DNA of 64,000 bases from Bacteroidales bacterium. Lineage in GTDB: Bacteria > Bacteroidota > Bacteroidia > Bacteroidales > JAGOPY01. This document shows, piece after piece, positions 6,389-49,029 of this stretch. The DNA lies in the NCBI GenBank assembly GCA_017991835.1, contig JAGOPY010000001.1, positions 147,892-211,891 on the forward strand, written 5' to 3'. The notes under the pieces were generated by a model. That model worked only from the letters and a program-made list of their open reading frames with translations, made no database searches and had not been told where the DNA came from. Position 1 is the first letter of the stretch; each line of letters starts with the position of its first letter. Made by a program: the position numbers and the translations under genes.

Positions 6389-6475
6389 TGGAACCTGGAA
6401 CCTGGAACCTGGAACCTGGAACCTGGAACCTGGAACCTGGAACTTTGGAACTTTGGAACTTTGGAACCTTGAACT
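6389..6475. repeat. tandem array (TGGAACC)x7 + (TGGAACTT)x3
   Basis: Counted directly. It ends 6 nt before the ATG at 6482. Confidence 0.9.
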
Positions 6476-6481
6476 AACCCC

Positions 6482-7171
6482 ATGCACCTCATCACTATCG
6501 GCGACCTCCACGGCTCCGCAGCCTGGAAACGGATCAACCCGCTCAAATACGACCGGGTGATCTTTGTGGGCGATTACGTCGATTCTGGCCGGTATAATGA
6601 TGAAGCCATCTATGCCAACCTGAAATCGCTGATACAATGGAAAGAAAAATTGCCGGACAGGATCGTTCTTCTTTGGGGTAACCACGACCTGGCCTATTTC
6701 TACGGCGGTCACGAACGGCACTATTGTTCCGGCTTCCGCCCCGATATGCTCTCCCGCCTCTTTTCATTTTATACCCACTACCGGTCGCACTTCCAGGCTG
6801 CTTTCCAGATCGGCAATTACCTCTGGACCCACGCCGGCGTTGTGCAACGATGGTTCGACCATTGTATCGGCAGCGAAGTGCTTCCTTCCGACCAGAACCT
6901 GGCGGCTACCCTGAACCGACTCTTTGACCAATATTATGAGCCCCTTTATTATGTGAGCGTCATCCGGGGCGGCGTAAATGAAGACGGCGGCATTTTCTGG
7001 GCCCACCGGACCGAAACGCTCGAAGATCCGCTGAAAGGCTACCACCAGATCGTAGGGCATTCACAGACACACGAGGGAATCGTCGTCGCCGACCATTTCG
7101 GCCCCGATACCTCCGTGACATATGTCGACTGCCTGACGACAAGCCCGGAGTTTTATAAATTGGAGATTTGA
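6482..7171 (+). CDS. metallophosphoesterase (Ser/Thr phosphatase-like)
   Basis: Calcineurin-like motifs GDLHG, GDYVDSG, GNHD and a later GH. Confidence 0.75.
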   Translation: MHLITIGDLHGSAAWKRINPLKYDRVIFVGDYVDSGRYNDEAIYANLKSLIQWKEKLPDRIVLLWGNHDLAYFYGGHERHYCSGFRPDMLSRLFSFYTHYRSHFQAAFQIGNYLWTHAGVVQRWFDHCIGSEVLPSDQNLAATLNRLFDQYYEPLYYVSVIRGGVNEDGGIFWAHRTETLEDPLKGYHQIVGHSQTHEGIVVADHFGPDTSVTYVDCLTTSPEFYKLEI

Positions 7172-7330
7172 GGATTGGGAGATTTGACGATTTGACGAAG
7201 GGATATTCGATTGTCCATTGTCGATTTTCGATTTTCGATTTTATTTTGAATTTAGATTTTGAGATTTGTTTGGTTTTTGGAGCTTGTGATTTGGAATTTT
7301 TATTGATATTTACAGGATAAATTCAGATCT
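7163..7330. repeat. degenerate GATTT-type tandem repeats incl. (TCGATTT)x3
   Basis: GAGATTTGAGGATTGGGAGATTTGACGATTTGACGA..., then TCGATTTTCGATTTTCGATTT at 7221-7241. Fills the gap before the acyl-CoA dehydrogenase gene. Confidence 0.7.
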
Positions 7331-7338
7331 GCGATTTT

Positions 7339-8478: not shown

Positions 8479-8481
8479 ATG

Positions 8482-8552
8482 GATTGTTCGATTGTTCGAT
8501 TGTTCGATTGTTCGATTGTTCGATTGTTCGATTGTTCGATTGTTCGATTGTT
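8482..8552. repeat. tandem array (GATTGTTC)x~9
   Basis: Starts 4 nt after the acyl-CoA dehydrogenase stop. Perfect octamer periodicity. Confidence 0.9.
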
Positions 8553-8574
8553 AATCTTACTGTCAAATATTATA

Positions 8575-8662
8575 ACAATTGAACAATTGAGCTGTTGAAC
8601 AATTGAGCTGTTGAACAATTGAGCCGTTGAACAATTGAACAGTTGAACAATTGAGCCGTTGA
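8575..8662. repeat. tandem array of 16-mer GAACAATTGAGCYGTT x~5
   Basis: Read directly. Its GAACAAT core is the reverse complement of the core of the preceding array, so the two arrays can form a long imperfect hairpin. Confidence 0.85.
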
Positions 8663-8724
8663 CTAATCTTTTTTATCTTTGATGATTCTTTTAATCATTA
8701 ATTTTAAACTGGAGGATATGTGGG

Positions 8725-9102
8725 ATGGAAAAGAAATATTTAAAATTAAATGATATTGATTCCTATAAGAGGGCTTTTCATCTGAGTAATAAAGTCTGGA
8801 ACATCGTAATTTCCTGGGATCATTTTTCGAAAAATACTGTCGGATCGCAATTTGTCCGGGCTGTGGATTCAATTTCTGCAAACCTGGCTGAAGGTTTTGG
8901 CAGATTTTCCAAAAAGGATAAGATTAAGTTTTATCGCATTGCAACGGGTTCGCTAAAAGAATCTTTGGATTGGAATGAAAAGTCAAAACATCGAAACCTG
9001 ATATCGGAAGAAATCTATCTGGAAATATTTAATGAACTGAATGCATTGCCATTAGAGATCAACCAACTTATAAAATACATAAATATGTCTCTTAAAAAAT
9101 AA
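8725..9102 (+). CDS. four-helix-bundle protein (23S rRNA intervening-sequence protein family)
   Basis: 125 aa. QFVRAVDSISANLAEGFGR...KFYRIATGSLKESLDW matches the family signature as I remember it. Confidence 0.75.
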   Translation: MEKKYLKLNDIDSYKRAFHLSNKVWNIVISWDHFSKNTVGSQFVRAVDSISANLAEGFGRFSKKDKIKFYRIATGSLKESLDWNEKSKHRNLISEEIYLEIFNELNALPLEINQLIKYINMSLKK

Positions 9103-9117: not shown

Positions 9118-9199
9118 ACAATAGAACAATAGAACAATAGAACAATAGAACAATAGAACAATAGAACAATAGAACAATAGAACAATAGAACAATAGAAC
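9118..9199. repeat. tandem array (AACAATAG)x~10
   Basis: Perfect octamer array ending 2 nt before the etfB ATG. Confidence 0.9.
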
Positions 9200-9201
9200 C
9201 C

Positions 9202-9951
9202 ATGAAAATCCTCATCTGCCTCTCCAACGTCCCTGATACCACGACAAAAATCAAATTTACCGGCGATATGAAAAGTTTTGATGCTGCCGGTGTGCAATGG
9301 ATCATTAACCCGTGGGACGAACTGGCGCTGACCCGCGCCCTGGAACTGAAGGAAACCTCGGGCGCCACCATCGAAAAAGTGACCGTGCTGACCGTTGGCA
9401 AAGCCGATACCGAGCCGACCCTGCGCAAAGCGCTGGCCATCGGCGCCGACGACGCGGCCAGGATCGACGCCGATCCGAAAGACGCCTACCAGGTAGCTTC
9501 CCAGATCGCCGGCTTCCTGAAAACACAGCCGTATGAGATCGTCCTCTGCGGAATCGAATCCAGCGATTACAACGGGAGCATCGTCGGCGGGATGCTGTCG
9601 GAATTCCTCGACTGTACCTCGGTTTCTTCTGTTTCCGGATTGCAACTGGAAAACGGTACCATCCGGCTCAACCGCGAAATCGACGGCGGACAGGAGGTGG
9701 TGGAGGCCGGCGTTCCATTCGTTGGCATCGTTCAGAAAGGAATTGCCAAAGAGCCCCGTATCCCTTCGATGCGCGGTATCATGATGGCACGGTCGAAACC
9801 GCTGGCTGTGGTTCCGGCATTCGAGACCGAAGAGCTGACCGAGTTCACCAGCTATGAACTGCCCTCCGCGCACGCCAAATGCAAAATGATCGATGCGGAA
9901 AATATCGGCGGACTGGTGGAGGTGCTGAAAAATGAACTGAAAGTAATTTAG
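9202..9951 (+). CDS. etfB: electron transfer flavoprotein subunit beta
   Basis: MKILICLSNVPDTTTKIKF..., 249 aa, typical EtfB. Directly followed by etfA. Confidence 0.9.
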   Translation: MKILICLSNVPDTTTKIKFTGDMKSFDAAGVQWIINPWDELALTRALELKETSGATIEKVTVLTVGKADTEPTLRKALAIGADDAARIDADPKDAYQVASQIAGFLKTQPYEIVLCGIESSDYNGSIVGGMLSEFLDCTSVSSVSGLQLENGTIRLNREIDGGQEVVEAGVPFVGIVQKGIAKEPRIPSMRGIMMARSKPLAVVPAFETEELTEFTSYELPSAHAKCKMIDAENIGGLVEVLKNELKVI

Positions 9952-9985
9952 TTCAAAGTTCAAAATTCAAAATTCAAAGTTTATA
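9951..9985. repeat. tandem heptamers (GTTCAAA/ATTCAAA)x~5
   Basis: Overlaps the etfB stop and lies upstream of etfA. Confidence 0.8.
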
Positions 9986-10973: not shown

Positions 10974-11052
10974 GATATTTTGATATTTTGATATTGTGAT
11001 GTTGTGATATTGTGATGTTGTGATATTGTGATGTTGTGATGTTGTGATATTA
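10974..11052. repeat. tandem octamers (GATATTGT/GATGTTGT)
   Basis: Begins directly at the etfA stop codon. Confidence 0.85.
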
Positions 11053-11181: not shown

Positions 11182-11904
11182 ATGCCGACTGTTGTTTCTC
11201 TCCATTCTGATATCCTCGATTTCTGCCGGGCCAATGCCGATGAGGCGCTGGTAAGAAAGTACTCCCGCTATTTCAAAGAAGGAGGGTATGACGCATATGG
11301 CGTGACTTATCCGTTGATGCAGGAGAAGGTGAAATCTGTCCTGGAAACGCCCGGGGTTGATCTGGGATTGATCATGGAACTCAGCCGGCTGCTTGTCCCC
11401 GGGACCAAATACGAAGAGCCTGCCATTGCCCTGATGCTGGTCAAAGCCATGAAGAAGCACTATACCGATGATACTTTCCGGGAGATCGTCCACTGGTTCG
11501 ATATCGGAATACGCAACTGGGCCCATACCGATGCGCTGTGTTCGGAGATCTTGTCGGTTTTCCTTCTGAAGAAGATCGTAGATTATAAAGAAATTGGAAA
11601 ATGGAAACAGGGGGAGAATAAATTTCAGCGGAGGGCGGTGCCGGTTGCATTGATCAAACTGATGAAAGAGACGAAGAGAGTTGAGGAATATGTTCGTTTT
11701 ATCGAGCCGCTGATGATGGATGCAGAGCGGGAGGTGCACCAGGGGGTTGGCTGGTTCCTGAGAGAGGCGTGGAAGATTGATCCTGAACCTGTTGAAGAAT
11801 TTTTACTGAAATACAAAAACACTGCCGCCCGCCTTATCTTTCAGTATGCTACGGAGAAAATGACGCCGGAGGGGAAGGCGAGGTTCAGGAGGGAGAAAAG
11901 GTAA
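11182..11904 (+). CDS. DNA alkylation repair protein (AlkD-like HEAT-repeat)
   Basis: About 240 aa. Pattern WAHTDALC ... FQRRAVPVALI ... VHQGVGWFLRE is typical of the DNA alkylation repair enzyme family. Confidence 0.7.
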   Translation: MPTVVSLHSDILDFCRANADEALVRKYSRYFKEGGYDAYGVTYPLMQEKVKSVLETPGVDLGLIMELSRLLVPGTKYEEPAIALMLVKAMKKHYTDDTFREIVHWFDIGIRNWAHTDALCSEILSVFLLKKIVDYKEIGKWKQGENKFQRRAVPVALIKLMKETKRVEEYVRFIEPLMMDAEREVHQGVGWFLREAWKIDPEPVEEFLLKYKNTAARLIFQYATEKMTPEGKARFRREKR

Positions 11905-18081: not shown

Positions 18082-18260
18082 AAATAATTGAATATAAATG
18101 CTATGAAAAGAATATGTTATAGACTAAATTCCCTTCAAATATAATCCAAATCTGTGATTACTCCGGGAAATCTGTGGTGAAAATCCTTTTCCATTACAAA
18201 TAACAAATTAGCCTTCTAATCCATCATTTTACATAATTTTACACTCTTGATTGAAATCTT

Positions 18261-18791
<531 letters not shown>

Positions 18792-18804
18792 ATAACATTC
18801 TTTT

Positions 18805-18856
18805 AACCACATAGGCAGATAGAACACATAGGATACACAATAGATTCTATGTGGTT
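18805..18856. repeat. CACATAG-word hairpin
   Basis: AACCACATAG (18805-18814) pairs with CTATGTGGTT (18847-18856). The loop contains further ACACATAGG/ACACAATAG words. Confidence 0.7.
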
Positions 18857-18940
18857 ACTGTTTTGCCCTTTCCCGAAAAATCGGGACAAGTTGTGTTTAT
18901 TTTATTAATATTTATTATGATAAAATATAAAATCTGAAAG

Positions 18941-21346
18941 ATGAAAAGATTTATATCTCTATTTATATTTACTCTGGCATGCATATCTCTTCATGCACAA
19001 ATAATTACCATAAAAGACAAAGAGAATTACCAACCGCTGGACCTGGTCACCCTGTCCAGCCAGGAACCGGCAGCATCGGCCATCACCAATATTAAAGGAC
19101 AGGCTGATATTTCCGCATTCACGGGATCATCCCTGATCGAGATCCGGTTGCTGGGATACGAACCGGTGAAAATAAGCTGGGCCGACCTTGCAAGAGCAGG
19201 CTTTCACCTCAACCTCAGCCAGTCTGCCATATCCCTCGACCAGGTGATCATCTCGGCTACGCGCTGGAGCCAGATGACCCGCGAGGTGCCCTCAAAGATC
19301 ACGTTGATTTCGGCCAAGGAAGTTGCCCTGCAGAATCCCCAAACGGCCGCCGACCTGCTGGGCGCCTCCGGTGAAATTTTCATCCAGAAAAGCCAGCTCG
19401 GAGGGGGCAGCCCGATGATCCGCGGTTTTGCCACCAACCGCGTTCTGCTGGTCGTCGATGGAATCCGCATGAATACGGCGATTTTCCGCAGCGGGAACCT
19501 GCAGAACGTCATCGCTCTCGATCCGTTCGCCGTGGAAAAGACCGAGATCTTCTTCGGCCCCGGTTCGGTGATCTATGGCAGCGATGCCATCGGCGGGGTC
19601 ATGAACTTCCAGACCCTCACTCCCCGTCTCTCCGTGAACGGTGAGCCTTATATATCTGGCAATGCCGTAACTCGCTTCTCATCCGCCAATAAAGAAATGA
19701 CAGGTCATTTAGATGTCAACGTGGGATGGAAAAAGTGGGCCATGGTCACAAGCTTTTCTCAATTTCATTTCTCTGATCTCAGGATGGGATCGAATGGCCC
19801 CGACGATTATCTCAGGCCGAATTACGTCATCCGCCAGGACAGCGCTGATGTGGTTATCACCAATCCCGATCCGCTGGTGCAGACCCCTACCGGATACGAC
19901 CAGACCAGCCTGATGCAGAAGGTCAGGTTTTCGCCGAATGCCAACTGGGATCTGACATACGGGATTCATTATTCGACAACCACCAACGTGTCGCGTTACG
20001 ACCGTTTGCTCAGGACCAAAAACGGCCTTCCCCGGAGCGCCGAATGGTACTACGGCCCGCAGACCTGGATGATGAACACGCTGAACATCGAGAACAAGGC
20101 TACCGGTGGAATTTACGACCGGATGAATATCCGCCTGGCGCACCAGTTGTTCGAGGAGAGCCGTCATGACCGCGACCGGAACAAAGCTACAAGATTCAAT
20201 CGCTTTGAAAAGGTGAATGCTTATTCCGTCAATATCGACTTTACGAAGATAATACGGGAAAAACACCGGCTTTTCTACGGCCTGGAATACATTTCCAACA
20301 AAGTTGAATCGACCGGGACCGACGAGGATATCACAACCGGTGAATCAATCCCGGGCCCGGCCCGTTACCCGCAGTCGACCTGGGCTTCGTACGCTGCTTA
20401 CCTGACGTACCATTACAAAATCAACGAAAAGTTTAATCTGCAGGCCGGGGCACGGTACAATCACTACACGCTGGATGCGGAATTTGATACGACCTTTTAC
20501 CCCTTCCCGTTTACGGCTGCAAATCTGAGCGACGGGGCCATTACCGGAAGCGTGGGCCTGGTGTACAACCCGGCCGAGAAATGGTCGTTCGGGGCCGACA
20601 TTTCCACAGGGTTCCGTTCGCCCAATGTGGACGACATCGGAAAAGTATTTGACTCAGAACCGGGGGCGGTGATGGTGCCCAATCCCGATCTGAGCGCCGA
20701 GTATGTGTACAATGCAGAGATTGATATTGCCCGGGTGTTCGGTAATTTCATGAAGATCGACCTGGTGGCCTACTACACCTATCTCGACCATGCCCTTGTC
20801 AGGCGGGATTTTACGCTGAACGGGCAGGACAGCATCTTTTATGACGGCGAGATGAGCCGGGTGCAGGCGATGCAGAATGCGGCTTTTGCCACCGTATATG
20901 GAGTCCAGGCTGAGGTGGAGGTGAAACTCCCGTCGGGGTTCGGATTTTCGACACAGTTCAACTACCAGAAAGGGGAAGAGGAGCTTGACGACGGCACGAA
21001 GAGCCCGCTGCGTCATGCAGCCCCCTGGTTTGGCAAATCGGGGCTGACATTTTCGGCCGACAAGCTGAAGATAGACCTGTATGCGGCATACAGCGGCGAA
21101 GTCAGTTATGAGAGCCTGCCGCCGGAGGAGCAGGGCAAAGACTACATGTATGCGAAAGACGAAGATGGCAATCCCTACTCGCCATCATGGTACACCTTGA
21201 ATTTCAAGGCCATGTACCAGATCAGCGACATTTTATCGGTCAGCGGCGGAGTGGAGAACATCACGGATGTCAGGTACAGGCCATACAGCAGCGGGATCAC
21301 GGCGCCGGGGCGGAACCTGGTGTTGTCGCTCCGGGCGAGTTTCTGA
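18941..21346 (+). CDS. TonB-dependent receptor (heme/hemoglobin-type boxes)
   Basis: Signal peptide, CarboxypepD_reg-like N-domain, plug domain (GGSPMIRGF...VVDGIRMN) and a terminal F. FRSPN and NPDL boxes resemble the FRAP/NPNL boxes of heme receptors. Confidence 0.85.
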   Translation: MKRFISLFIFTLACISLHAQIITIKDKENYQPLDLVTLSSQEPAASAITNIKGQADISAFTGSSLIEIRLLGYEPVKISWADLARAGFHLNLSQSAISLDQVIISATRWSQMTREVPSKITLISAKEVALQNPQTAADLLGASGEIFIQKSQLGGGSPMIRGFATNRVLLVVDGIRMNTAIFRSGNLQNVIALDPFAVEKTEIFFGPGSVIYGSDAIGGVMNFQTLTPRLSVNGEPYISGNAVTRFSSANKEMTGHLDVNVGWKKWAMVTSFSQFHFSDLRMGSNGPDDYLRPNYVIRQDSADVVITNPDPLVQTPTGYDQTSLMQKVRFSPNANWDLTYGIHYSTTTNVSRYDRLLRTKNGLPRSAEWYYGPQTWMMNTLNIENKATGGIYDRMNIRLAHQLFEESRHDRDRNKATRFNRFEKVNAYSVNIDFTKIIREKHRLFYGLEYISNKVESTGTDEDITTGESIPGPARYPQSTWASYAAYLTYHYKINEKFNLQAGARYNHYTLDAEFDTTFYPFPFTAANLSDGAITGSVGLVYNPAEKWSFGADISTGFRSPNVDDIGKVFDSEPGAVMVPNPDLSAEYVYNAEIDIARVFGNFMKIDLVAYYTYLDHALVRRDFTLNGQDSIFYDGEMSRVQAMQNAAFATVYGVQAEVEVKLPSGFGFSTQFNYQKGEEELDDGTKSPLRHAAPWFGKSGLTFSADKLKIDLYAAYSGEVSYESLPPEEQGKDYMYAKDEDGNPYSPSWYTLNFKAMYQISDILSVSGGVENITDVRYRPYSSGITAPGRNLVLSLRASF

Positions 21347-21357
21347 TGGAATAAAAT

Positions 21358-35013: not shown

Positions 35014-35046
35014 GAAAGGGATGGCGTCCCTCGGGACCTCGTCCCG

Positions 35047-35102: not shown

Positions 35103-35237
35103 AATTTAATGCCTTCTGTTTTATACCTTTACCTAATGTTTTATTAACTTGAAGGAATTTGCGCATAAACAAGGTTGATGAAAATCAAAGAGAACCAAAA
35201 GGCAATCTTCTTCTAACAATCTTATTATCTGTACATT

Positions 35238-35693
35238 ATGAAGCTGAAAATCCTTGTCGGGAACGGAAGAAAAATCGGACTGCTGGCCCTTCCGTTCATC
35301 GTTGCCGGTTTAACCCTGAACATCCTCTACCCCGAAGCCTTTAGCGTCTGCGGACCGACACTTGGTCTTATCATCGCTTCGGTCATCATACTCATCCCGG
35401 GCATTATCATCTGGATATGGTCAGTGGTTTTGATCCTGACGAAGATTCCCCGCAGGGAACTGATCACCACCGGGCCTTATGCTCTGGTCAAGCATCCGCT
35501 CTACACCGGGGTGGCGCTACTCGTCCTGCCCTGGGTCGGCTTTCTGTGCAACACATGGCTCGGGGCCCTGATCGGCATTGTAGTTTACATCGGATCGAGG
35601 CTTTATTCGCCGGAAGAAGAAAAGATCCTGGCCAAGATCTTCGGCCAGGCCTGGGACGATTATTGCAATAAAGTTCTCCTCCCCTGGATATAA
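35238..35693 (+). CDS. isoprenylcysteine carboxyl methyltransferase (ICMT/PEMT) family protein
   Basis: Membrane protein with LITTGPYALVKHPLYTG and EEEKIL...FG..W..Y motifs. Confidence 0.7.
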   Translation: MKLKILVGNGRKIGLLALPFIVAGLTLNILYPEAFSVCGPTLGLIIASVIILIPGIIIWIWSVVLILTKIPRRELITTGPYALVKHPLYTGVALLVLPWVGFLCNTWLGALIGIVVYIGSRLYSPEEEKILAKIFGQAWDDYCNKVLLPWI

Positions 35694-35703
35694 GAGACCA
35701 TAT

Positions 35704-35731
35704 CGAAAATCGTAAATCGTAAATCGAATAT
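35704..35731. repeat. tandem heptamers (CGTAAAT)x~4
   Basis: CGAAAATCGTAAATCGTAAATCGAATAT, between convergent genes. Confidence 0.8.
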
Positions 35732-36825: not shown

Positions 36826-36875
36826 ATCCTGAATAAATTCTAATCATCCCAAAATCAAATCCCAAAACCATTCCC

Positions 36876-36912
36876 TTTTCACTCTTCACTTTTCACTTTT
36901 CACTCTTCACTA
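36876..36912. repeat. tandem heptamers (TYTTCAC)x~5
   Basis: TTTTCACTCTTCACTTTTCACTTTTCACTCTTCAC. Overlaps the MscS stop. Confidence 0.85.
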
Positions 36913-38504
36913 TTCTCCGGAATCGTCACCTTATTCCCATCCCGCTCGGCGCGATAATGCGGCGACATGATCTCAACCCCCGCCTTGTTGAACTCGTCCT
37001 GTATGTTCTGATGCAAGTCCGATTTGATTCTTACGATGCCATGCGAGTTTTTAACATAAGCGTTGATCTGGTAGCTGATATAAAAATCCTCCAGCCCGGT
37101 CTGCAAAACAAAAGGTTTCGGTTGAGCAACCACCCCCGCCGTCTTTTCCGCAGCCCGGATCAGAAGCTCATGCACCTTCCGCCACGGGGCATCGTAGCCA
37201 ATCGTCACGGTCGTGTGAATGATAAGACCCTCATCCAGCGTTGCCGCTGTGAAATTAACCGTATAACCGGTCAATATCTTTGAATTGGGAATTGTAACTT
37301 CTTCATTCTTAATTGTTCTGAGCCTTGTCGTCATCAGGGTCTTTTCAATAACATCACCCGTAATATCTTCGATGGTGATCCTGTCGCCCACTTTATAAGG
37401 CCTCATGTAAGTGATCACCAGCCCGGCCAGGGTGTTTCCGATCAGTGAAGTGGAACCCAGCGAAATAAGCAATCCCAGGAAAACCGATACCCCCTGGAAT
37501 ATCGGGGAATCGGAACCGGGAAGGTATGGGAATATGATGATGAACATGAAAGCATAAAGAAGGATTCGGATGATATTGAAGGTAGGCAGGGCCCATTCGG
37601 GATGAAATCCTTTTATTACCAATGCTTTATTTTCAACTTCCTTCGTAAGATACCTGATAAGCCGGATCAGGTATTTGAATAATAAGTAGATAATAATGAT
37701 GGTTATCAATTTTGGAAGATAACCGATGATCCCCATGAGGATATTTTGTATCGGCTCCCAGATCATGGCGATAATCTTTCGGGTAATCCCCTCGGTTGAT
37801 GGGAAAATGCTGAAAATCACCGGCAAGGCTACCAGGAACAGGATTATTATTAAAACAATCTTAAAAAACCGCAACAATCCCCTGGCTACCACAAACTCCC
37901 GCTCCGCCGTAAGAAACTCATATTCATTTATTTTGATGCTTTTGAAAAGACGTTCTTTATGCTTCTCTGCATATTTTATTATCTTCCTGAATAACCAGTT
38001 TAATAACCAGATGATCAATACCAGGACAAAGACCACAATCAGCGAGTAAGCAATGTTAGTAACAGTTGCCGTGATGTTGAATTTCGCGCTCTTCGCCGCC
38101 AGTTCCTCATTCAGCAAATTGAACACCCTACCTGAAATTTCATCCTGTGTCATACCTGTCCCCGCGGTATCCGCCGGCTGAATAACCATCAGCACCTTGT
38201 TGCGGTAAACAATGTAATAATCGCTTTCAACATAGAAACCGGTCAGCGAATCAGCATAAAAAACAGGCTCCTTCACCACCTTCATCAGCTTATCCGATAT
38301 GGCAGCCGCGCGGTCTCCGGCTGAAAAAGCGCCATAGGCAGAATGGATTGTGAACAATGTATCTCCAAGAAGTACAACCGGACTACCGGCCTGGTCCACA
38401 AAGGCACCCTTCATGGCGGTTCCGCTGCCCGGCTGATCCTGTGCTTGAATTGTCAAAGCTGATATTACGGCAACCGCAGTTATGATTATCCTGACTATCT
38501 TCAT
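36900..38504 (-). CDS. mechanosensitive ion channel (MscS) family protein
   Basis: C-terminal MscS core (LIGNTLAGLVITYMRPYKVGDRI...TIKNEEVTIPNSKIL). Start set at ATG MKIVRIII; the track ORF starts 10 codons earlier at a TTG. Confidence 0.8.
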   Translation of the reverse strand: MKIVRIIITAVAVISALTIQAQDQPGSGTAMKGAFVDQAGSPVVLLGDTLFTIHSAYGAFSAGDRAAAISDKLMKVVKEPVFYADSLTGFYVESDYYIVYRNKVLMVIQPADTAGTGMTQDEISGRVFNLLNEELAAKSAKFNITATVTNIAYSLIVVFVLVLIIWLLNWLFRKIIKYAEKHKERLFKSIKINEYEFLTAEREFVVARGLLRFFKIVLIIILFLVALPVIFSIFPSTEGITRKIIAMIWEPIQNILMGIIGYLPKLITIIIIYLLFKYLIRLIRYLTKEVENKALVIKGFHPEWALPTFNIIRILLYAFMFIIIFPYLPGSDSPIFQGVSVFLGLLISLGSTSLIGNTLAGLVITYMRPYKVGDRITIEDITGDVIEKTLMTTRLRTIKNEEVTIPNSKILTGYTVNFTAATLDEGLIIHTTVTIGYDAPWRKVHELLIRAAEKTAGVVAQPKPFVLQTGLEDFYISYQINAYVKNSHGIVRIKSDLHQNIQDEFNKAGVEIMSPHYRAERDGNKVTIPENSEE

Positions 38505-38545
38505 ATGTAAACTAAGCCCTTGGTTATATAACAAAGTTACATAAA

Positions 38546-38584
38546 ATTGAGATGGAGTCTCAATTTTTGAGACTCCATCTCAAT
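38546..38584. repeat. 39-nt near-perfect palindrome built from the same 13-mer
   Basis: ATTGAGATGGAGTCTCAA-ttt-TTGAGACTCCATCTCAAT: 18-bp arms and a 3-nt loop. It lies in the divergent gap between the MscS gene and the 38662 cargo gene. Confidence 0.85.
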
Positions 38585-38661
38585 ACCAACTCTTTTTCCT
38601 CCTACTTTTGATAGTCGATTTCAGGAAAAACTCCTGGTCATCATTTAACCAAAACTGTATT

Positions 38662-41600
38662 ATGAATTTACTATTCAGAGCATTTCTCCTGATACTTACA
38701 GCCGTTTGCTTTATTACCGCGACTAACGCCCAGATCACCCCTCAGGTCCGCCGGGCCGTTCATTCCGATAAAACACCCCCGCTCAGGGAAATGCGGTTGA
38801 TCGAACCGCAGCCTCGCGACCGAAGCTGGAAGAACGGAATTATCCGTAATGAGGACTCGGGCCGGAAGCGAAACGAAAATCCTTCTCCCCTGCCGTCGGG
38901 GTTGGATCCTGCACTCCAGTCAGAATTCGGATTCCGGGATTTTCCGGGAATGGTGGCCAACTTCGAAGGCGTTCCGAACCGGAACTCAGTCTACCCGCCC
39001 GATACCGACGGAGATGTCGGCCCCAACCACTATTTCCAGATGATCAACCTGTCGTTCCAGATCTTCGACAAGCAGGGAAATTCTCTCTACGGGCCTGCCG
39101 ACAATTCCACCCTCTGGAGCGGGTTTATCGGCTCCTGGACAGGGACCAACGACGGCGACCCGATCCTGTTGTACGACGAAATGGCCGATCGCTGGGTAGC
39201 TACCCAATTTGCCATCAATACTTCCGACGGCACTTACTGGGAGCTTGTCGCCCTCTCGGAATCGGGTGATCCGCTAGGGGCCTATTACCGCTATGCTTTC
39301 CAGTTCCCGGCTTTCAACGACTATCCGAAAGTGGGCGTCTGGCCCGATGGCTACTATTTTTCCTTTAATATGTTCGGCAACGACTACCGCAGGGCAGCCG
39401 TATGCGCTCTCGACCGGGAAGCGATGCTGAACGGCGATCCCGATGCCCGGATGGTGCTTTTCGATATGCCGCAGGGAAGCGAACCCTGGAGCCTCCTGCC
39501 GGCCGACTTCGACGGTCCGCCGCCACCCGCCGGCATCCCGAATTACTTTATCTACGCTATGGATGATGCCTTTGGCAGCGGCGACTACCTGAGCCTTTGG
39601 GCTTTCGTAACGAACTGGGATTCCCCTGAAAACTCAACTTTCCTGGAGATCGGCCGCCTGGATACCGAACCATTTAACTCATTCTTCTGCGAAGCCTCTT
39701 TGGGCGCCTGCCTGCCGCAACCCGACAACGGGCCGAACCTGGAGGTGCTGTCCGACAGGCTGATGTACCGCCTGCAATACAGGAACTTCGGCACCTATCA
39801 GACGATGGTCACCAATCATACGGTCAATGCCGACGGACAGGGGCATGCCGGTATACGCTGGTACGAGCTGCGGAATAACAACGACGGCAACTGGTACATC
39901 TACCAGCAGGGGACTTATGCTCCCGATGAGAACGACCGCTGGATGGCCAGTGTCGCCATGGACGGCCGGGGGTATATCGCCCTGGGATTCAGTATCGTCA
40001 GCCCCGTCATGTACCCTTCGATCCGTTATACGGGCCGTAGTCCGAACGATCCCCCGGGTCAGATGACCTTCTTTGAAGAAGAAATCATGGCCGGAACCGG
40101 TATCCAGACCGGCAGCGCTGCCCGCTGGGGCGACTACAGTATGATGTCGGTCGATCCGGCCGACGATACAACATTCTGGTTCACTACCGAATACGTTAAA
40201 AACTCCGGCCAGGTGAGCTGGAAAACACGAATAGCCGGATTCAGAATGCTGGAAGACAACCTGGCGCCGGCTGATGTAATGGACCTGCAAGCTAATGCCA
40301 ACACTACCAACTCCATCACACTCCGCTGGACAGCCACCGGTAACGACGGCAACTCCGGGACCGCTTTCCTATACGATATCCGCTATTCCAAAGAGCCCAT
40401 CACGAATGAAAACTTCGATGCCGCCATCCAGGCTGAAAACGAGCCTGCCCCATCCGAATCCGGCTCCCAGGAGGTGTTTACCATAAATGATCTGGAGTTC
40501 AGCACCACCTACTACCTGGCCATGAAGGTCCGCGACCGCCAGTTCAATTTCACCGGGCTTTCTAACACGGTGCAGGCCATGACCCCGGGCAAGCCCGTGA
40601 TGGCGGTGGAGGAAACGGCTATCGTTCAGAAGATATTCCCGGGCTCCGCCGGGCAAAGGGAATTCATCATCCGGAATACCGGTGAGAGCGATCTCTGTTT
40701 TAAGACTCAGAAAGAGTCCGCGGGCGGAATAAAACATCCCCGAAACCTGGGCGATTATGCCGACCGAAGCCGACAATCCGATCCGGATGTTGACGCCTGG
40801 GTGCGCGAAGCCCTGTCGAATGACGGCCTGAGCGGATCCCGCGCAGCCGGCGATATCCTGGGCGAATACACCGGGGCCACCTCCTCCATCTCCGGGATGA
40901 CATGGGTCGGGAACAACATCTTCATGCTCGATATGCAAAACAACCTCCTTCTGACTTACGACACGGCCCTGCAAGCTATAACCGGCGAAGTGACCGTGCA
41001 CGAAAATCCTTTCAGCATCGCCTGGGACGGGGAACTTCTCTGGATCGGCGACAATAACGGCAATATCACGGCGTACCACCCCGACGGCAGTTCGGCCGGC
41101 TACTCCTTCAGTTGCCCGCAAATCGGATACCCGACACTGTCGTGGGACGGCGAAGCCTTCTACACCAATACGATCATTTCCAATAACCCGTATGTTTACC
41201 GCGTCGACGAGACCGGGAAAATCCTTGAATCCTTCCGCTTTATGCTGAATTCGATGCAGATCTGGCAACTGGTATACGTGCCGGAACACTATTCGGGGCC
41301 ATTCTGGTTTACCAACAACAACGGGATCATCGGGCAGGCTATGGTGGATGAGAACAACACCGGCACTATTTTACAGCAGTTTGCGGCCCCTTTCACCATC
41401 TCGTTTGCCCTCTGTCACGACCACACCGACCTATGGTACGGAAAACCCGGTGGTACCCTTTACCGGATCGATGATGGAACCGATGAAGTCAACTGGCTGA
41501 CGATCGAACCGGGCAAAGGAATTGTCCCGGCTGCAAGCCAACTGTCGCTGGCCCTGAATTTTAACGCCGGCGGGTTTGACTTCGGAAATAAACTTGCCAA

Positions 41601-42918: not shown

Positions 42919-42957
42919 TTACGCCGCAAAAATAACCTTTAACTACCAATCCCTGAC

Positions 42958-43040
42958 TTCAATTTTGAACTCAGCACTTTGAACTTCAACTTTGAACTTT
43001 GAACTTTAACTTTGAACTTTGATCTTTGAACTTTGAACTA
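42958..43040. repeat. tandem heptamers (TGAACTT) x~9, degenerate
   Basis: The reverse complement of the word is the AGTTCAA word of the 9951 array. Overlaps the 3' end of the decarboxylase ORF. Confidence 0.85.
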
Positions 43041-46614: not shown

Positions 46615-46634
46615 ATTCGGAATGAACCGGCAGC

Positions 46635-47078
46635 TTATCCCGGCAACAAATGTTCCTCGATCTCCAGGAAAATAATCTCCAGGTTTTTGATCTTTCCCTT
46701 TGGAATTTCATAGGCAGCCAGTGCCTGCGGTACCTTCTGGATTTTCCCGGTGATCTCCTTTTTTAAAGCCGCAGGCAAAATATCGTTCACGATCAGGAAA
46801 AAATCGGCCCCCTTCTCAGAAGGGATCAAACGCCCATCCTCATGATAATTGGAAACCAGGTAATAATCCCGCCTCTCTTCCGGATGACTGTACAGATAAA
46901 AGGAATAACCGCGCGATTCGGCTTCCTCGCCCGATATCAGGTCATCCAGCCTTTTAAAATGAAAACCCAGGCTTTCATTCATAAAGAAGGCGAACCGGTA
47001 GTCCTTCATATGGCAGGCGATCCCTATCGTTGTGTAATCGTAGGAGCTGCCACCGGTGAGTTTGATCTTCCTGCCCAT
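46635..47078 (-). CDS. small Bacteroidetes-type hypothetical protein (possibly IPExxxVDY family)
   Basis: 147 aa. YDYTTIGIACHMKDYRFAFFMNESLGFHFKRLDDL resembles that family from memory. The start overlaps the GH97 stop by 1 nt. Confidence 0.45.
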   Translation of the reverse strand: MGRKIKLTGGSSYDYTTIGIACHMKDYRFAFFMNESLGFHFKRLDDLISGEEAESRGYSFYLYSHPEERRDYYLVSNYHEDGRLIPSEKGADFFLIVNDILPAALKKEITGKIQKVPQALAAYEIPKGKIKNLEIIFLEIEEHLLPG

Positions 47079-48958
47079 CAGTTTACAGGTGTTACCGTGA
47101 TGGCCTGCCCGCCTCCCGGGGCCAGCCGGATCACATATTCATCGTCCTTTTTCACCATCCTCTTTTCAATGACGTAATCCAGAGGGTTGGAAACCCAATC
47201 GGCGTCCGGACCGTCAGCATAGACCACGGCTTCATACATCACCTTTTCATCCAGGAAGTCCAGTTTGACAAGCAACTCACGCGGATTTTCATCGGTGATC
47301 GACCCGATGTACCAGGCATTGTTCTTTTTCCGGGCAATGGTCACATAATCGCCGATCTTCCCGTTAAGCGCCTTCGTCTGGTCCCAGTCAACCGGCACTT
47401 CCCGGATGAACCGGAACGCCGGATGACCTTCGTAATTTTCGATCAGATCGGCCGCCATCTGCAACGGGCTGTAAATAACAACCATCAATGCCAGTTGCTT
47501 CGCCAGGGTGCTATGGATCCGGTTATCATACTCATTGCCAAGCCCCCATTCGCGGCTCATGAAATTCGGCCAGGTGCGTTCCAGCCCGGTCGCCTTCACC
47601 GTTTCATGCGCATCCACCATGATCTTGTGCTTCGCCGCTTTTTCAATGATCATCGCCTGGTGATTGACCATCCACTGCCCGTGATGGTATTGCCCCTCAG
47701 GCCTCATCTTACCTACATAGCCGGTTTTTATGGCATGGACCCCAAGCCGCTCATAAAGAGCGAAAGCGGAATCCACCTGTGTCTCATAAAATTCAGCGTT
47801 GGCTCCGGTTTCATTATGGACAATCAGGTACACGCCCTTATTTTTTGCATATCCCGCCACTTCCGCAAGATTGTAATCATCATAGGCTTCCATCATCGGA
47901 AACTCAACGCCGTCGGCCCAGTTCTCCCATCCTTTGTTCCAACCCTCTACCAGCACCCCGGGTATGTTGTTCTCTGACGCAAAATCGATGTGCCGCTTCG
48001 CATTCTCCGTGGTAGCCCCATGCTTCGGGCCGGCTGTCCAGGTATACTTTCCGATATGCATCCCCCACCAGATGCCGATGTACTTCATCGGCCTGATCCA
48101 GCTTATGTCTTCCAGCTTCGTGGGTTCATTCAGGTTCAGGATCAACGATGATTCGATCAGTTCGCCGGCAGTTTTTGAAAGTTGAACCGTTCTCCAGGGC
48201 GTCTGAAAAGGGACCTCAACCCTGGCTTTTACCCCGTCGGGCCATGGCACCAGGTCGCACAACAGCGTTAAAGGAGCATCGGCAGACCTTTTCAGCCTCA
48301 TTTCAGGGTAATTCACCAGCGCCGCTTCGTGCAGGCTCAGGCACAGGCTGTCGGTCAGCGATTCCATCGTCAGCGGGGTATTGGCCGAATCAATTCCGCT
48401 GATGGGGGTATTGCGGTAAAGAAATTCATGATTGTCATAATCACCCGGGATCCACCAGGCACTGAGATCATCCCTGAACCGGAATTCGGTCAGCTCCTTC
48501 ATGATCTCCAGTTTGGTCAGTCCTTCCTGTTCGGGAACGACATACCGGAAAGCGATGCCGTCGTTGTACGCCCTGAACTCAAGCTGTAATGTCCGGCCGG
48601 GTTCGGCCTTCTCTTTCAGGATCACCTGGAGCTGCCCGTAGTGCTCCCTGATCCGGTTGCGCTGCCCCCAGGCCGGTTCCCAGCGGCTTTGTTCACCCGA
48701 CATGGTCGCTTTCTCCATCCTGAGGTTTTCCCCGATCGGCAGTCCGTCCCGTATCTCAAAACCCAGCGCCGACGTGTCGATCACAACCCGGGTATCACGG
48801 ATCACCCGGTAAAAGGGCTTTCCCTCCCTGAGGATGAAAACTATGTTATTTCTTCCATCCGGTGAATCAAGCCTCACCGCCTCATCCGAAGAACAGGATG
48901 AGAAAAGTAAAGCAAAACACAAAATCAATGGCGCAAATCCTAAAATCCCAATTCTCAT
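47078..48958 (-). CDS. glycoside hydrolase family 97 (SusB-like alpha-glucosidase)
   Basis: SPDGRNNIVF...GKPFYRV, GVLVEGWNKGWENW. Lipoprotein signal MRIGILGFAPLILCFALLFSSC. The track ORF extends 27 codons further upstream into a tandem heptamer array, so I trimmed it. Confidence 0.75.
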   Translation of the reverse strand: MRIGILGFAPLILCFALLFSSCSSDEAVRLDSPDGRNNIVFILREGKPFYRVIRDTRVVIDTSALGFEIRDGLPIGENLRMEKATMSGEQSRWEPAWGQRNRIREHYGQLQVILKEKAEPGRTLQLEFRAYNDGIAFRYVVPEQEGLTKLEIMKELTEFRFRDDLSAWWIPGDYDNHEFLYRNTPISGIDSANTPLTMESLTDSLCLSLHEAALVNYPEMRLKRSADAPLTLLCDLVPWPDGVKARVEVPFQTPWRTVQLSKTAGELIESSLILNLNEPTKLEDISWIRPMKYIGIWWGMHIGKYTWTAGPKHGATTENAKRHIDFASENNIPGVLVEGWNKGWENWADGVEFPMMEAYDDYNLAEVAGYAKNKGVYLIVHNETGANAEFYETQVDSAFALYERLGVHAIKTGYVGKMRPEGQYHHGQWMVNHQAMIIEKAAKHKIMVDAHETVKATGLERTWPNFMSREWGLGNEYDNRIHSTLAKQLALMVVIYSPLQMAADLIENYEGHPAFRFIREVPVDWDQTKALNGKIGDYVTIARKKNNAWYIGSITDENPRELLVKLDFLDEKVMYEAVVYADGPDADWVSNPLDYVIEKRMVKKDDEYVIRLAPGGGQAITVTPVN

Positions 48959-48994
48959 ATCATTAACTCTAAAACTCATAACTAAAATTCGTAA

Positions 48995-49029
48995 CCCGAA
49001 ACCTGAAACCTGGAACCTGGAACTTGGAC
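48995..49029. repeat. tandem heptamers (CYGRAAC)x~5, same word as 6389 array
   Basis: CCGAAACCTGAAACCTGGAACCTGGAACTTGG, between the transglutaminase-like gene stop and the GH97 start. Confidence 0.85.

Follow-up and report, generated by a model that had tools for sequence, protein, structure and literature searches.

The short intergenic gaps of an uncultured Bacteroidales genome are populated by tandem arrays of 7–8-nt units, a subset of which is tied to genes of the 23S_rRNA_IVP family (IVP genes). In the 64-kb stretch of DNA analysed here (the window), the arrays at 8482, 8574 and 9118 are the conserved inverted arms of one such gene, inserted between the genes for acyl-CoA dehydrogenase and etfB, a relationship missed by an earlier sequence-only reading of this DNA. 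Overall, we consider it probable that the arrays comprise slippage-expanded arms of cassettes resembling the intervening sequences (IVSs) of 23S rRNA, together with solitary arrays from the same word families. Both tandem arrays and 23S rRNA IVSs are known kinds of element, and what is new here is the tie between a subset of arrays and IVP genes.

Tandem arrays in the window

Tandem Repeats Finder identified 15 arrays with 7–9-nt units in the window and none, under the same criteria, in 50 dinucleotide-preserving shuffles of it (0.23 arrays per kb versus 0), in line with the unusual density noticed previously. Thirteen of the 15 are intergenic, in a window with a non-coding share of only 9.3% (P = 3e-12), and at least nine different units occur within the 64 kb. 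Together with direct reading of the sequence, the search recovered every array listed before and added a 9-mer within an ORF (32067–32129). The arrays are as follows, with the strand where one was assigned:

6389–6474: TGGAACC ×12, (TGGAACC)8(TGGAACTT)3, ending 7 nt before the metallophosphoesterase ATG (6482)
7162–7260: GATTTGAC and GATTTTC arrays, beginning at the metallophosphoesterase stop codon
8482–8552, plus strand: (GATTGTTC)9, perfect, beginning 3 nt past the acyl-CoA dehydrogenase stop
8574–8662, plus strand: 16-mer TTGAACAATTGAGCCG ×5, also given as (TTGAACAATTGAGCYG)5, AACAAT-type
9118–9199, plus strand: (ACAATAGA)10, perfect, equivalent to (GAACAATA)10, ending 2 nt before the etfB ATG (9202)
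9950–9981: AGTTCAA/AATTCAA, filling the etfB–etfA spacer
10974–11051: (GATATTGT/GATGTTGT)10, beginning at the etfA stop
18715–18753: (TTCCATT)5.6, in the long divergent gap 18082–18940, within a doubtful 101-aa ORF
31809–31940: (GTTCTATT)16, equivalent to (TATTGTTC)16, beginning at the stop of an Rce1-like gene
32067–32129, plus strand: 9-nt array ACCCTTATA/CCTTACCAC, within the 5' end of the gene for a 990-aa secreted protein
35702–35726: (ATCGTAA)3.6, filling the gap between the stop codons of two convergent ORFs
36870–36915: (TTCACTY)6, overlapping the stop of the upstream minus-strand ORF, with the next minus-strand start 52 nt downstream
42956–43039: (TTTGAAC/TTCAAC)11, supplying the final ~10 codons and stop of a minus-strand decarboxylase ORF
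48993–49028: AACCTGG array, (AACCTGR)5, between a transglutaminase-like stop and a GH97 start, both on the minus strand

Only the array at 32067, with its period divisible by three, is clearly coding. The arrays are indeed absent from the restriction-modification island, an uninformative observation, as hardly any of that stretch is non-coding. Their supposed near-exclusion from the region of GAGACTCC elements holds only in part: the region contains the arrays at 31816, 35702 and 36870, although these occupy other gaps than the GAGACTCC elements do. The three GGAACC hexamers at 60948–60972, previously regarded as a possible coincidence, fall within a GA-rich structured region that is tandemly duplicated (484 bp) and lack array character, and we therefore also treat them as coincidental.

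Units recur between distant loci in both orientations, as had been reported. Three pairs are exact up to rotation or reverse complement (TGGAACC in the arrays at 6389 and 48993; ACAATAGA at 9118 and GTTCTATT at 31816; AGTTCAA at 9950 and TTTGAAC at 42964), and GATTGTTC differs from AACAATTG by one mismatch. Across 81 genomes, exact unit sharing among same-period pairs reaches 7/92 (7.6%) within genomes versus 8/1611 (0.5%) between genomes (Fisher P = 5e-6). Arrays occur across the lineage and beyond it, an extent that the earlier work had missed.

Strain variation and positional rules

The arrays vary between strains by whole units. Compared with other strains, the window has nine rather than six copies of GATTGTTC at 8482, five rather than seven copies of the 16-mer at 8574 and ten rather than 15 units of GATRTTGT at 10974; strains carry nine, ten or about 12 copies of ACAATAGA at 9118, the AACCTGR array at 48993 is longer by three and six units in strains with otherwise identical intergenic DNA, and the array-bearing segment 42910–43049 spans 140 nt in the window but 159 nt in a second strain. 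Three gaps free of arrays (123, 210 and 197 nt), by comparison, are identical or a single SNP apart. Because strains with identical ordinary intergenic DNA differ by whole units, we regard the arrays as slippage-prone tracts and not as artefacts, in keeping with the earlier suggestion of slippage. Variation extends to array identity, even between strains that are 96–99% identical: whole arrays are replaced in the gap 7172–7338, where other strains hold ATTTGGA, TTGGAAT and TTTGAAC arrays, and the array at 6389 is a chimera, recombined from the two arrays that other strains have on either side of a 1.7-kb DUF4143 ATPase insert. The array at 9950 does not vary among strains; for that at 35702 only one other strain was found, and it has the same sequence. 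Arrays are homogeneous in the centre and degenerate at the edges.

Arrays follow positional rules. Thirty-seven lie nearer the upstream stop and 18 nearer the downstream start (medians of 7 nt and 47 nt), with the caveat that distances to starts in relatives carry error because genes there were called simply as longest ORFs. Divergent promoter gaps hold 2 of 66 arrays despite contributing 20% of intergenic bases (P = 5e-5, depletion), and 70 of 79 7/8-mers are intergenic versus 6 of 13 6/9/12-mers (Fisher P = 0.001). Adjacency to stops was correctly read from the window, where arrays begin 0–7 nt past the acyl-CoA dehydrogenase, etfA and Rce1-like stops, as was adjacency to starts at ATG 9202 and ATG 6482. 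Orientation is constrained too, which the earlier reading had overlooked, with GTTC-type words after stops and GAAC-type words before starts, and A exceeds T in 18 of the 22 arrays within 30 nt of a start. The proposal that arrays generally act as unstructured A-rich translation leaders nevertheless finds no support in these trends: arrays favour stops and are depleted from divergent gaps, array-free leaders share the compositional bias of start-proximal arrays, and the zero folding energy of ACAAUAGA is equalled by its own shuffles.

An IVP cassette in the etf operon

Three further features of the window bear on the array-flanked IVP gene:

8674–8681, plus strand: TATCTTTG, putative promoter, 43 nt upstream of the IVP ATG
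8725–9102, plus strand: 23S_rRNA_IVP gene (four-helix bundle, Avd-like), 125 aa (PF05635, E = 2e-23)
50876–51598, minus strand: RNase III gene (Pfam Ribonuclease_3 and dsrm on the orthologous gene in loci L092–L094)

The array at 8482 is the upstream, G+T-rich arm of a type A IVP cassette and the array at 9118 its downstream, A+C-rich arm. The arrays at 8482 and 8574 pair into a hairpin of about 75 bp (segment 8476–8730, −106.6 kcal/mol, z = −14.5). In the predicted fold of the window transcript, the arm at 8482 pairs with this adjacent array and not across the IVP ORF, so the fold predicted for this species departs from the classical IVS geometry; the array at 9118 is predicted to be unpaired. 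Only this one of the array-bearing gaps in the window forms a strong hairpin (the remaining gaps have z between 0 and −2); most window arrays are thus solitary, and their descent from cassettes is something that we infer. The octamer TATCTTTG matches TAnnTTTG, the consensus of the Bacteroidetes −7 promoter motif, and is a putative promoter for IVP–etfBA; the same motif lies upstream of etfB in many relatives. The RNase III gene encodes a candidate host enzyme for cutting array stems.

IVP cassettes in other genomes

Inverted flanks are stronger for 16 IVP genes in related loci than for 862 control genes (Mann–Whitney P = 1.3e-5), and 9 of the 16 have an array within 250 nt, compared with 12% of all genes (P = 3e-5). 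Arrays are present in 11 of 12 loci with an IVP gene versus 21 of 69 without one (P = 9e-5), and IVP-bearing loci have twice the arrays per kb even away from the IVP gene; at the same time, 84% of intergenic arrays in related loci have no IVP gene within 250 nt. Flanks that fold into a closing stem around the whole IVP ORF were found at L017 and L081 (z = −3.2 and −5.9, respectively). The etfB–etfA spacer of relatives holds arrays or IVP cassettes, and some of the IVP loci in etf operons may be orthologous rather than independent insertions.

Homologues of the type A IVP protein, 66–72% identical, occur in Bacteroidota, Cytophagales and CPR, in unrelated operon-like gaps: trpG–trpD (in Tunicatimonas pelagia), BamA–Skp, PSD1–DUF1501 and AbiEii–PrgI. 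Each of the four has ATTGTT units upstream and AACAAT units downstream, with summed ATTGTT:AACAAT counts of 26:6 upstream and 2:38 downstream. The type B subtype instead carries TAGRCT upstream and AGYCTA downstream (14:1 and 0:20), and cross-matches between the type A and type B arm motifs are near zero. Arms are therefore subtype-specific across phyla, and a separate motif for each subtype would fit cognate binding by the IVP protein. By contrast, a single protein-binding motif for all arrays is unlikely because 64 kb hold at least nine different units. Other units flank IVP genes in (GGTTCCA)4-IVP-(GAACCTG)2 (L123) and (AGTTTGG)4-IVP-(ACTCCAA)7 (L176).

TGGAACC arrays occur in at least 120 metagenome contigs of 35–70% GC. 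Their hairpins have a fixed polarity: of 87 loci with (GGTTCCA)n, 23 have the inverted partner downstream and not one has it upstream, a count that may overstate independence because these loci have no taxon assignment and may come from related genomes. One such array pair encloses an IVP gene, and the window words TGGAACC, TTGGAAC and TTTGAAC make up the arms of fixed-polarity hairpins in widely different genomes. Solitary arrays that repeat the unit of the resident cassette arm were found in the window at 31816, in upstream-arm orientation, and in L064 at 18667 and 18858. The units GATTTTC, TTCCATT, TTCACTY and ATCGTAA had no match among the cassette arms found.

Relation to known repeat systems

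Long simple-sequence repeats (LSSRs) have 5–11-nt units (Mrazek 2007, as cited in PMC4679880 and PMC4692102). The Xanthomonas GGGAATC and Nostoc GGGGAYT heptamers are 89–93% intergenic, about 28 nt from the upstream and 160 nt from the downstream ORF (Rehm 2015, PMC4692102); TAACTGA repeats of Beggiatoaceae, Cyanobacteria and some Bacteroidetes have a proposed regulatory role (MacGregor 2015, PMC4679880), and a cis-regulatory role has also been proposed for Nostoc heptamers upstream of recF and recO. The present arrays share with all of these, and with cyanobacterial STRR heptamers, head-to-tail 7-nt units, a strong intergenic bias and proximity to the end of the upstream ORF. Further features in common with these systems are the use of both orientations, length variation in close relatives, genome-specific word families, the occurrence of one heptamer in distant phyla with no known route of transfer, and paired inverted copies. 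The present arrays differ in that 8-mers and a 16-mer are no less prominent than 7-mers, at least nine unit types per 64 kb replace one dominant heptamer, and the host is an uncultured Bacteroidales lineage; we found no report of a link to IVP genes in the literature on these systems. Phase-variable contingency-locus repeats of Haemophilus, Neisseria and Campylobacter likewise change copy number by slippage between close strains, but have 1–5-nt units in ORFs or between promoter hexamers of surface or restriction-modification genes, whereas the 7–8-nt units here lie past housekeeping stop codons with no evident on/off logic.

The cassette resembles the 23S rRNA IVSs of Leptospira and Coxiella burnetii, with a PF05635 ORF between inverted repeats that pair into a long stem, tandem heptamers of strain-variable copy number in the stem region, and evidence of horizontal spread; in Coxiella, the IVS with the S23p ORF carries GACAGAT heptamers in variable number at the stem cut by RNase III (Warrier 2016, PMC4990558). 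The rRNA elements are known to be excised by RNase III, for which the window also has a gene. Unlike those elements, the cassette sits in protein-coding operon spacers and not in helix 25 or 45 of 23S rRNA, its arms are expanded to arrays of up to ten units with the downstream arm abutting the next start codon, and its upstream arm is predicted to fold with an internal copy rather than across the ORF. As with REP/BIME and MITE-type elements, the arrays are short, dispersed, hairpin-forming families specific to a genome, mostly extragenic past stop codons and rare between divergent genes, with ORF-less copies far outnumbering any protein-coding partner. In contrast to them, the stems consist of variable numbers of tandem 7–8-nt units, many copies are single-armed, no RAYT or transposase gene was identified, and the sole associated gene codes for a small four-helix bundle that is not known to catalyse any reaction. 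Avd of diversity-generating retroelements and the IVP protein share a superfamily (PF05635/bAvd), but the IVP gene stands alone inside operons, and Pfam annotation revealed no reverse transcriptase gene at the IVP loci examined.

Competing explanations

The arrays could combine two unrelated phenomena, namely near-neutral slippage repeats, locally seeded and filtered by selection, and IVP arms that are merely periodic and expand in the same background, with word sharing explained by common intergenic composition and occasional local duplication. Heptamers are the commonest class of long simple-sequence repeats in repeat-rich bacteria, with polymerase slippage as the proposed cause (Mrazek 2007, as cited in the same two papers), the Xanthomonas and Nostoc heptamers obey the same positional rule, and the remoteness of 84% of arrays from IVP genes, their agreement in orientation with background composition, their degenerate edges around homogeneous centres and the turnover of whole arrays in the gap 7172–7338 all agree with this explanation. 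We nevertheless consider it rather unlikely: exact sharing of 7–8-mers is 16-fold higher within than between genomes, for which composition alone is an unlikely cause, solitary arrays of the window and of L064 repeat the unit of the resident cassette arm, window words recur as arms of fixed-polarity hairpins in very different genomes, in one case around an IVP gene, and array occurrence (11/12 versus 21/69 loci) and the twofold density away from the gene both track IVP genes.

Selection for cis-regulation of the flanking housekeeping genes appears improbable to us. The arrays would then offer repeated sites to a protein that binds RNA or DNA (S1, Csp or another), or would be spacers and leaders that adjust translation or transcript stability through their copy number. 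Some arrays do abut starts, 18 of 22 start-proximal arrays are A-rich, the slots upstream of etfB and between etfB and etfA hold arrays in relatives with only 62–71% EtfB identity, and proposals as well as reporter data have been published for cyanobacterial heptamers. Yet the window contains at least nine unrelated units, units in orthologous slots differ between species, copy number and array identity change between 96–99% identical strains, one and the same unit can run with or against transcription, arrays prefer stops and avoid divergent promoter gaps, and the A-rich bias near starts is that of array-free leaders. No dedicated role in housekeeping-gene expression emerges for the arrays. 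Finally, we attach almost no credence to artefacts of short-read metagenome assembly or scaffolding. Scaffold N-gaps lie inside arrays and, with contig ends, coincide with them in several MAGs, so exact copy numbers of the longest arrays may be unreliable; however, at least 14 independent assemblies of the species (ENA, JGI, NCBI and Logan; different assemblers) agree on the arrays, their sites and their flanks, with several alleles common to at least five. As far as the existence of the arrays is concerned, this recurrence and the whole-unit strain differences refute an artefact.

A cassette model for array evolution

Under the cassette model that we favour, tracts of 7–8-nt units would be hypermutable, lengthening and shortening by strand slippage, and would persist only where harmless, that is, just past stop codons, away from divergent promoter regions and, except for periods divisible by three, not in reading frames, with start-adjacent arrays retained in the A/C-rich orientation. 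They are not random microsatellites, belonging instead to a few word families that also supply the arms of IVS-like hairpin cassettes. The arrays at 8482 (GATTGTTC), 8574 (AACAATTG...) and 9118 (GAACAATA) represent the inverted terminal arrays of a presumably mobile IVP cassette inserted in sense orientation between acyl-CoA dehydrogenase and etfB, such that the G+T-rich arm follows the upstream stop codon and the A+C-rich arm would form an unstructured etfB leader. In the transcript, the arms may form long double-stranded stems, candidate substrates for processing by RNase III as in 23S rRNA intervening sequences. The solitary TGGAACC, TTTGAAC, TATTGTTC and other arrays would most likely be one-armed or ORF-less relatives of the cassettes, or tracts seeded from them, kept variable by slippage.

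Tandem arrays are concentrated between genes

All 13 tandem arrays listed in the sequence-only reading were recovered, both by Tandem Repeats Finder run on the whole window and by direct reading, and its view that they are unusually dense held up: with a period of 5-12 nt and at least 3.5 copies as thresholds, the window contains 15 arrays, versus none in 50 dinucleotide-preserving shuffles. The arrays reach the at least four head-to-tail copies of a 5-11-nt unit, far above chance, by which long SSR/STRR are recognized. Non-coding DNA makes up 9.3% of the window yet holds 13 of the 15 (P = 3e-12; simple gene map and Pfam), the two others being a 9-mer within an ORF and one array in a doubtful 101-aa ORF. 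As had been claimed, arrays adjoin gene ends, lying 0-7 nt past the stops of the acyl-CoA dehydrogenase, etfA and Rce1-like genes, or ending 2 nt before the ATG at 9202 and 7 nt before the ATG at 6482. At 36870 and 42956, the array encodes the stop and the final codons (about 5 and about 11, respectively) of the upstream minus-strand ORF; copy-number change at 36900 or 43006, where these ORFs end, would alter the C-terminal 5-11 residues.

Features of the window used below
8482, upstream G+T-rich arm of the IVP cassette
8574, AACAAT-type array of the same cassette
[quoted passage not shown]
9118, downstream A+C-rich arm of the cassette
32067-32129, array of a 9-nt unit within an ORF, not in the sequence-only reading
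50876-51598, RNase III gene

Translated, the 9-nt array at 32067-32129 gives a hydrophobic repeat of L, I, T and F residues close to the start of a Por-secretion-tail protein of 990 aa. The starts of this gene (32036-32047) and of etfB (9197-9208) have AACCCATGAAAA in common, spanning the ATG, and the gene at 6482 has AACCCCATG at its start; these may represent a common start context downstream of arrays.

Among the array-containing gaps of the window, only 8479-8724 folds into a strong hairpin, which rules out, for the window, the candidate explanation that all arrays are hairpin arms. The suggestion that arrays generally serve as unstructured A-rich leaders did not survive either: single arrays range from 0 kcal/mol, with shuffles behaving likewise, to z = -3.8, and arrays favour stops over starts. 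An 11-mer comparison covering all intergenic regions found no MITE-like flanks in common beyond the arrays, the matches being array-to-array or within a separate GAGACTCC family; a short end, TTGAACTAAYCCCC, is common to 6389 and 42964. No Rfam match reached the gathering score anywhere in the window.

Other repeated elements occur in the same stretch. A palindromic family built on TGAGACTCCATCTC / GAGATGGAGTCTCA occupies 21337-21506, 23632-23785, 25923-26183, 27265-27694, 35004-35247 and 38495-38671, with related copies at 31064-31164 and 63341-63765; its members fold strongly (z of -4 to -11), lie in intergenic gaps without 7/8-mer arrays and look like REP-type elements. At 60606-61556 lies a 484-bp tandem duplication (95% identity, GA-rich, with many GNRA-like loops and a terminator-like hairpin at its end), which has no Rfam match at the gathering score and whose GGAACC triplet lacks array character.

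Array words are related and consistently oriented

The sharing of words between distant arrays was confirmed in a wider sample: an exact unit is shared by 7 of 92 same-period pairs within genomes versus 8 of 1611 between genomes (P = 5e-6), and the signal strengthens with one mismatch permitted (P = 3e-8; same-period pairs, up to rotation and reverse complement). The window words form a network joined by single changes, with TGGAACC, TGGAACTT and TTGAACT in the 6389 array, TTTGAAC at 42956, AGTTCAA at 9950, and GAACAATA, GAACAATC and GAACAATT at 9118, 8482 and 8574, respectively. Their orientation is constrained: words of the GTTC type come after stops (8482, 9950 and 31816, and 42956 and 48993 on the minus strand), and words of the GAAC type come before starts (6389, 8574 and 9118).

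Arrays change by whole units among strains

The exact EtfB protein of the window is found on 20 contigs from independent ENA and JGI assemblies, and another window protein is matched in two NCBI MAGs and one further ENA assembly. Same-species strains with 96-99% identity to the window have matching arrays at matching sites, in counts that differ by whole units. The species occurs in digester metagenomes. Of the 10 arrays that can be compared, 7 differ in this way, with identical flanking gaps.

Copy number of window arrays in same-species strains
GATTGTTC array: window, 9 units; other strains, 6
16-mer at 8574: window, 5 units; other strains, 7
ACAATAGA array: window, 10 units; other strains, 9, 10 or about 12
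GATRTTGT array: window, about 10 units; other strains, 15
AACCTGR array: window, 5 units; other strains, +3 and +6
Segment with the 42956 array: window, 140 nt; other strain, 159 nt

In the strains closest to the window, three intergenic stretches free of arrays (123, 210 and 197 nt) each show at most one base change; the arrays therefore mutate much faster than their surroundings, and in unit steps, which is the signature of strand slippage. In the gap 7172-7338, other strains have wholly different arrays. Several MAGs place scaffold N-gaps inside arrays, and the direct array pairs in two relatives (L054 and L023) each proved to be a single array split by such a gap; assembly artefact as the source of the arrays is ruled out by their presence in at least 14 independent assemblies.

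Larger changes also occur at arrays. Three same-species strains (L001, L003 and L008; about 5350-7100 in L001) have, opposite window 6389-6481, a 1.7-kb insert with TGGAACC arrays on both sides, containing a DUF4143/AAA_14 ATPase gene and a decayed duplicate of the 5' part of the metallophosphoesterase gene at 6482. The 6389 array consists of the left part of one TGGAACC array and the right part of another, and this single chimeric array points to deletion by recombination between arrays.

Array position follows common rules across relatives

A scan with EtfB, limited to one genome per species, gave 80 related loci (mostly uncultured Bacteroidales), the closest with 84% EtfB identity and all others with at most 71%. 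At least one array is present in 32 of the 80, and these arrays often fill the window's own slots ahead of etfB and in the etfB-etfA spacer. Over 1.2 Mb, arrays with 7- or 8-nt units are intergenic in 70 of 79 cases overall and in 57 of 65 among relatives alone (P = 2e-47), versus 6 of 13 for 6-, 9- and 12-mers (Fisher P = 0.001), multiples of three being tolerated in ORFs. This dependence on period is expected from slippage everywhere followed by removal of frameshifting tracts. In co-directional gaps, 37 arrays lie nearer the upstream stop versus 18 nearer the downstream start (median distances of 7 versus 47 nt), and divergent gaps hold only 2 of 66 arrays despite contributing 20% of intergenic bases (P = 5e-5). 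Published work on Xanthomonas and Nostoc heptamers describes the same stop-proximal rule (Rehm 2015, PMC4692102).

On the sense strand, A exceeds T in 18 of the 22 arrays within 30 nt of a start, and a G+T content above 0.5 characterizes 16 of 22 arrays adjoining a stop and far from a start, versus 8 of 30 (P = 0.002). An array-specific grammar, T-rich after stops and A-rich before starts, was nevertheless rejected: the trend is real, but array-free gaps nearly match it (54% versus 25%), so the arrays conform to local composition and do not create it.

A cassette with an IVP gene and cognate array arms

The product of the gene at 8725-9102 matches PF05635 (E = 2e-23), a four-helix bundle family that is kin to the retroelement Avd protein (PMC10053308). 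Iterated HMM searches, used because a single phmmer query under-detected the family, identified 16 IVP genes in the window and related loci. Inverted-complementary flanks are stronger around these 16 than around 862 control genes (P = 1.3e-5), and a detectable array lies within 250 nt of 9 of the 16, versus 12% of all genes (P = 3e-5). In two relatives (L017 and L081), 8-nt-periodic flanking repeats fold into a closing stem round the entire ORF (z = -3.2 and -5.9). The arms of the window cassette are complementary at 7 of 8 positions; the predicted fold instead joins the 8482 array to its neighbour at 8574, forming a 75-bp hairpin (-106.6 kcal/mol, z = -14.5), so that the 9118 array would stay single-stranded and lead into etfB. 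Between this hairpin and the IVP gene lies a promoter-like motif that fits TAnnTTTG, a consensus of Bacteroidetes promoters, which differ from the sigma-70 consensus.

The IVP genes fall into subtypes, each with its own arm motif. Type A, to which the window cassette belongs, has homologues 66-72% identical to the window protein in Bacteroidota, Tunicatimonas and CPR/Patescibacteria. The four that were examined lie in sense orientation in the trpG/trpD (Tunicatimonas pelagia, CP120683.1), BamA/Skp, PSD1/DUF1501 and AbiEii/PrgI spacers, and in every one (N)ATTGTT(N) units precede the gene while (N)AACAAT(N) units come after it.

Arm motif counts at seven type A loci
ATTGT: 26 upstream, 2 downstream
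ACAAT: 6 upstream, 38 downstream

Type B (70-77% identical; Bacteroidota, KSB1, Ignavibacteria, Desulfosarcina and Armatimonadota) has TAGRCT upstream (14:1) and AGYCTA downstream (0:20), and cross-matches between type A and type B arms are near zero. The 8482, 8574 and 9118 arrays, here expanded to 9, 5 and 10 units, are therefore conserved parts, namely the arms, of a putatively mobile IVP cassette.

IVP genes seem to favour the etf operon. Across the etfB-centred loci, at least 12 of 80 species have IVP genes, of three subtypes in all, either ahead of etfB or in the etfB-etfA spacer; one of these species (L038) has both, and only 4 of the 16 IVP genes are elsewhere in these 20-kb loci. In L038, about 3.6 in-frame units of the type A arm word TAACAATA lie within the etfA coding sequence (11741-11770), encoding NNITIEQYNIE.

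GAAC-core heptamers have a fixed hairpin polarity

A metagenome scan with (TGGAACC)4 matched at least 120 contigs, with GC contents from 35% to 70%, and most TGGAACC contigs among the matches listed carry further heptamer arrays. Wherever TGGAACC arrays are paired among these matches, the architecture is 5'-(GGTTCCA)n-loop-(TGGAACC)n-3': of the 87 listed matches with both flanks, 23 have the inverted partner on the downstream side and none have it upstream (P = 2e-7). UUGGAAC/UUUGAAC, a form that preserves G-U pairing, is frequent as the 3' arm. When every unit type is counted, 32 of 42 inverted pairs begin with the G+T-rich arm. This polarity reads alike on both strands, and the A+C-rich arm always adjoins any downstream start codon; we consider compatibility with translation leaders the likeliest reason for it. 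In one metagenome contig (L123), a GGTTCCA/TGGAACC-type pair encloses an IVP gene, and a further IVP gene (L176) lies between (AGTTTGG)4 and (ACTCCAA)7.

The matches listed include at least one eukaryotic contig, L204, which consists of (AGGGTTT)266, a plant-type telomeric repeat. In the closest relative (L011, 84% EtfB), the etfA-alkD gap (5611-6177) holds (GTAGGACT)15, a 300-nt hairpin-rich non-coding core and (AGTCCTAC)18, that is, large inverted arrays without an ORF where the window has the GATRTTGT array. Another relative (L018, 11733-11836) has (AAAGAGA)6, a 16-nt loop and (TCTCTTC)6 directly past the etfA stop in a convergent gap, a terminator-like hairpin made wholly of heptamer arrays and among the minority with the A-rich arm first.

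Comparison with known systems

The window arrays share with long SSR/STRR every feature tested (unit copies, intergenic bias, polymorphism and stop-proximity). The closest precedent for the cassette is the Coxiella 23S rRNA IVS, which has the same kind of protein, is excised by RNase III and has tandem GACAGAT heptamers, varying in number among strains, at the cut stem (PMC4990558). The cassette resembles a 23S IVS in its PF05635 protein and variable-number stem repeats, and its relatives also in their inverted flanks. It differs in location, being in neither helix 25 nor helix 45 of 23S rRNA, with no rRNA match in the window; without this defining location, the cassette is IVS-like, not an IVS. 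Unlike phase-variable contingency loci, the arrays follow stops or sit in housekeeping leaders, and the lone coding array, a 9-mer, keeps the frame; unlike CRISPR arrays, their 7-16-nt units are directly adjacent, without spacers. For REP/BIME-RAYT or MITE systems, no transposase was seen within the window, and just one array gap folds as a hairpin. In the literature that we searched, IVP genes located in operon spacers and flanked by cognate arrays are not described.

Origin of the solitary arrays

Most window arrays are solitary, and 84% of related-locus arrays are not near an IVP gene. We infer a link between them and the cassettes from shared words, shared polarity, array density and the forms taken by TGGAACC. 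The unit of the window 31816 array is a cassette-arm unit, and in one relative (L064) two arrays of the solitary kind, AGGCTGTG and TTTAGGC, correspond to the arms of its own type B cassette. Arrays occur in 11 of 12 loci with an IVP gene versus 21 of 69 without, and even at a distance from the IVP gene, IVP-bearing loci have twice the array density. TGGAACC arrays exist as paired, ORF-less and ORF-bearing forms. The main competitor of this link is a purely slippage-based origin of the solitary arrays. A dedicated regulatory role is a weaker rival: many unrelated units are involved, orthologous slots hold different units in different species, strains replace one array by another, a given unit occurs in either orientation, and stop-proximal positions are favoured.

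A bolder reading, which we consider possible but rather unlikely, is the following. Stand-alone PF05635 genes would be the cargo of cross-phylum IVS-like cassettes that insert in sense orientation into operon spacers, each subfamily having its own 7-8-nt array arms, recognized by the protein; solitary arrays and fixed-polarity hairpins in repeat-rich genomes, possibly including STRR-type heptamers, would be ORF-less or one-armed derivatives. The proposed relationship between IVP and arrays would be analogous to that of RAYT and REP, or of transposases and MITEs.

Implications

Heptamer-type tandem repeats have been known in bacteria since 1990, and we know of no explanation for their origin and cross-phylum spread. 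Nor, to our knowledge, does the four-helix-bundle IVP family have a known function outside diversity-generating retroelements, and this family is large (about 3,000 homologues in one search and at least about 8,000 in another). The window connects the two, in that type A proteins are about 70% identical from Bacteroidales to CPR, with constant repeat words and polarity in unrelated operons. In practical terms, strain typing can draw on the arrays as hypervariable markers, and metagenome assemblies break at them. If the link holds, it would provide an origin for families of intergenic repeats and a means of their dispersal, a testable ligand for type A and type B IVP, with (UAUUGUUC)n, (GAACAAUA)n, (UUUAGACU)n and (AGUCUAAA)n as candidates, and a new mechanism for cutting or insulating operon transcripts.
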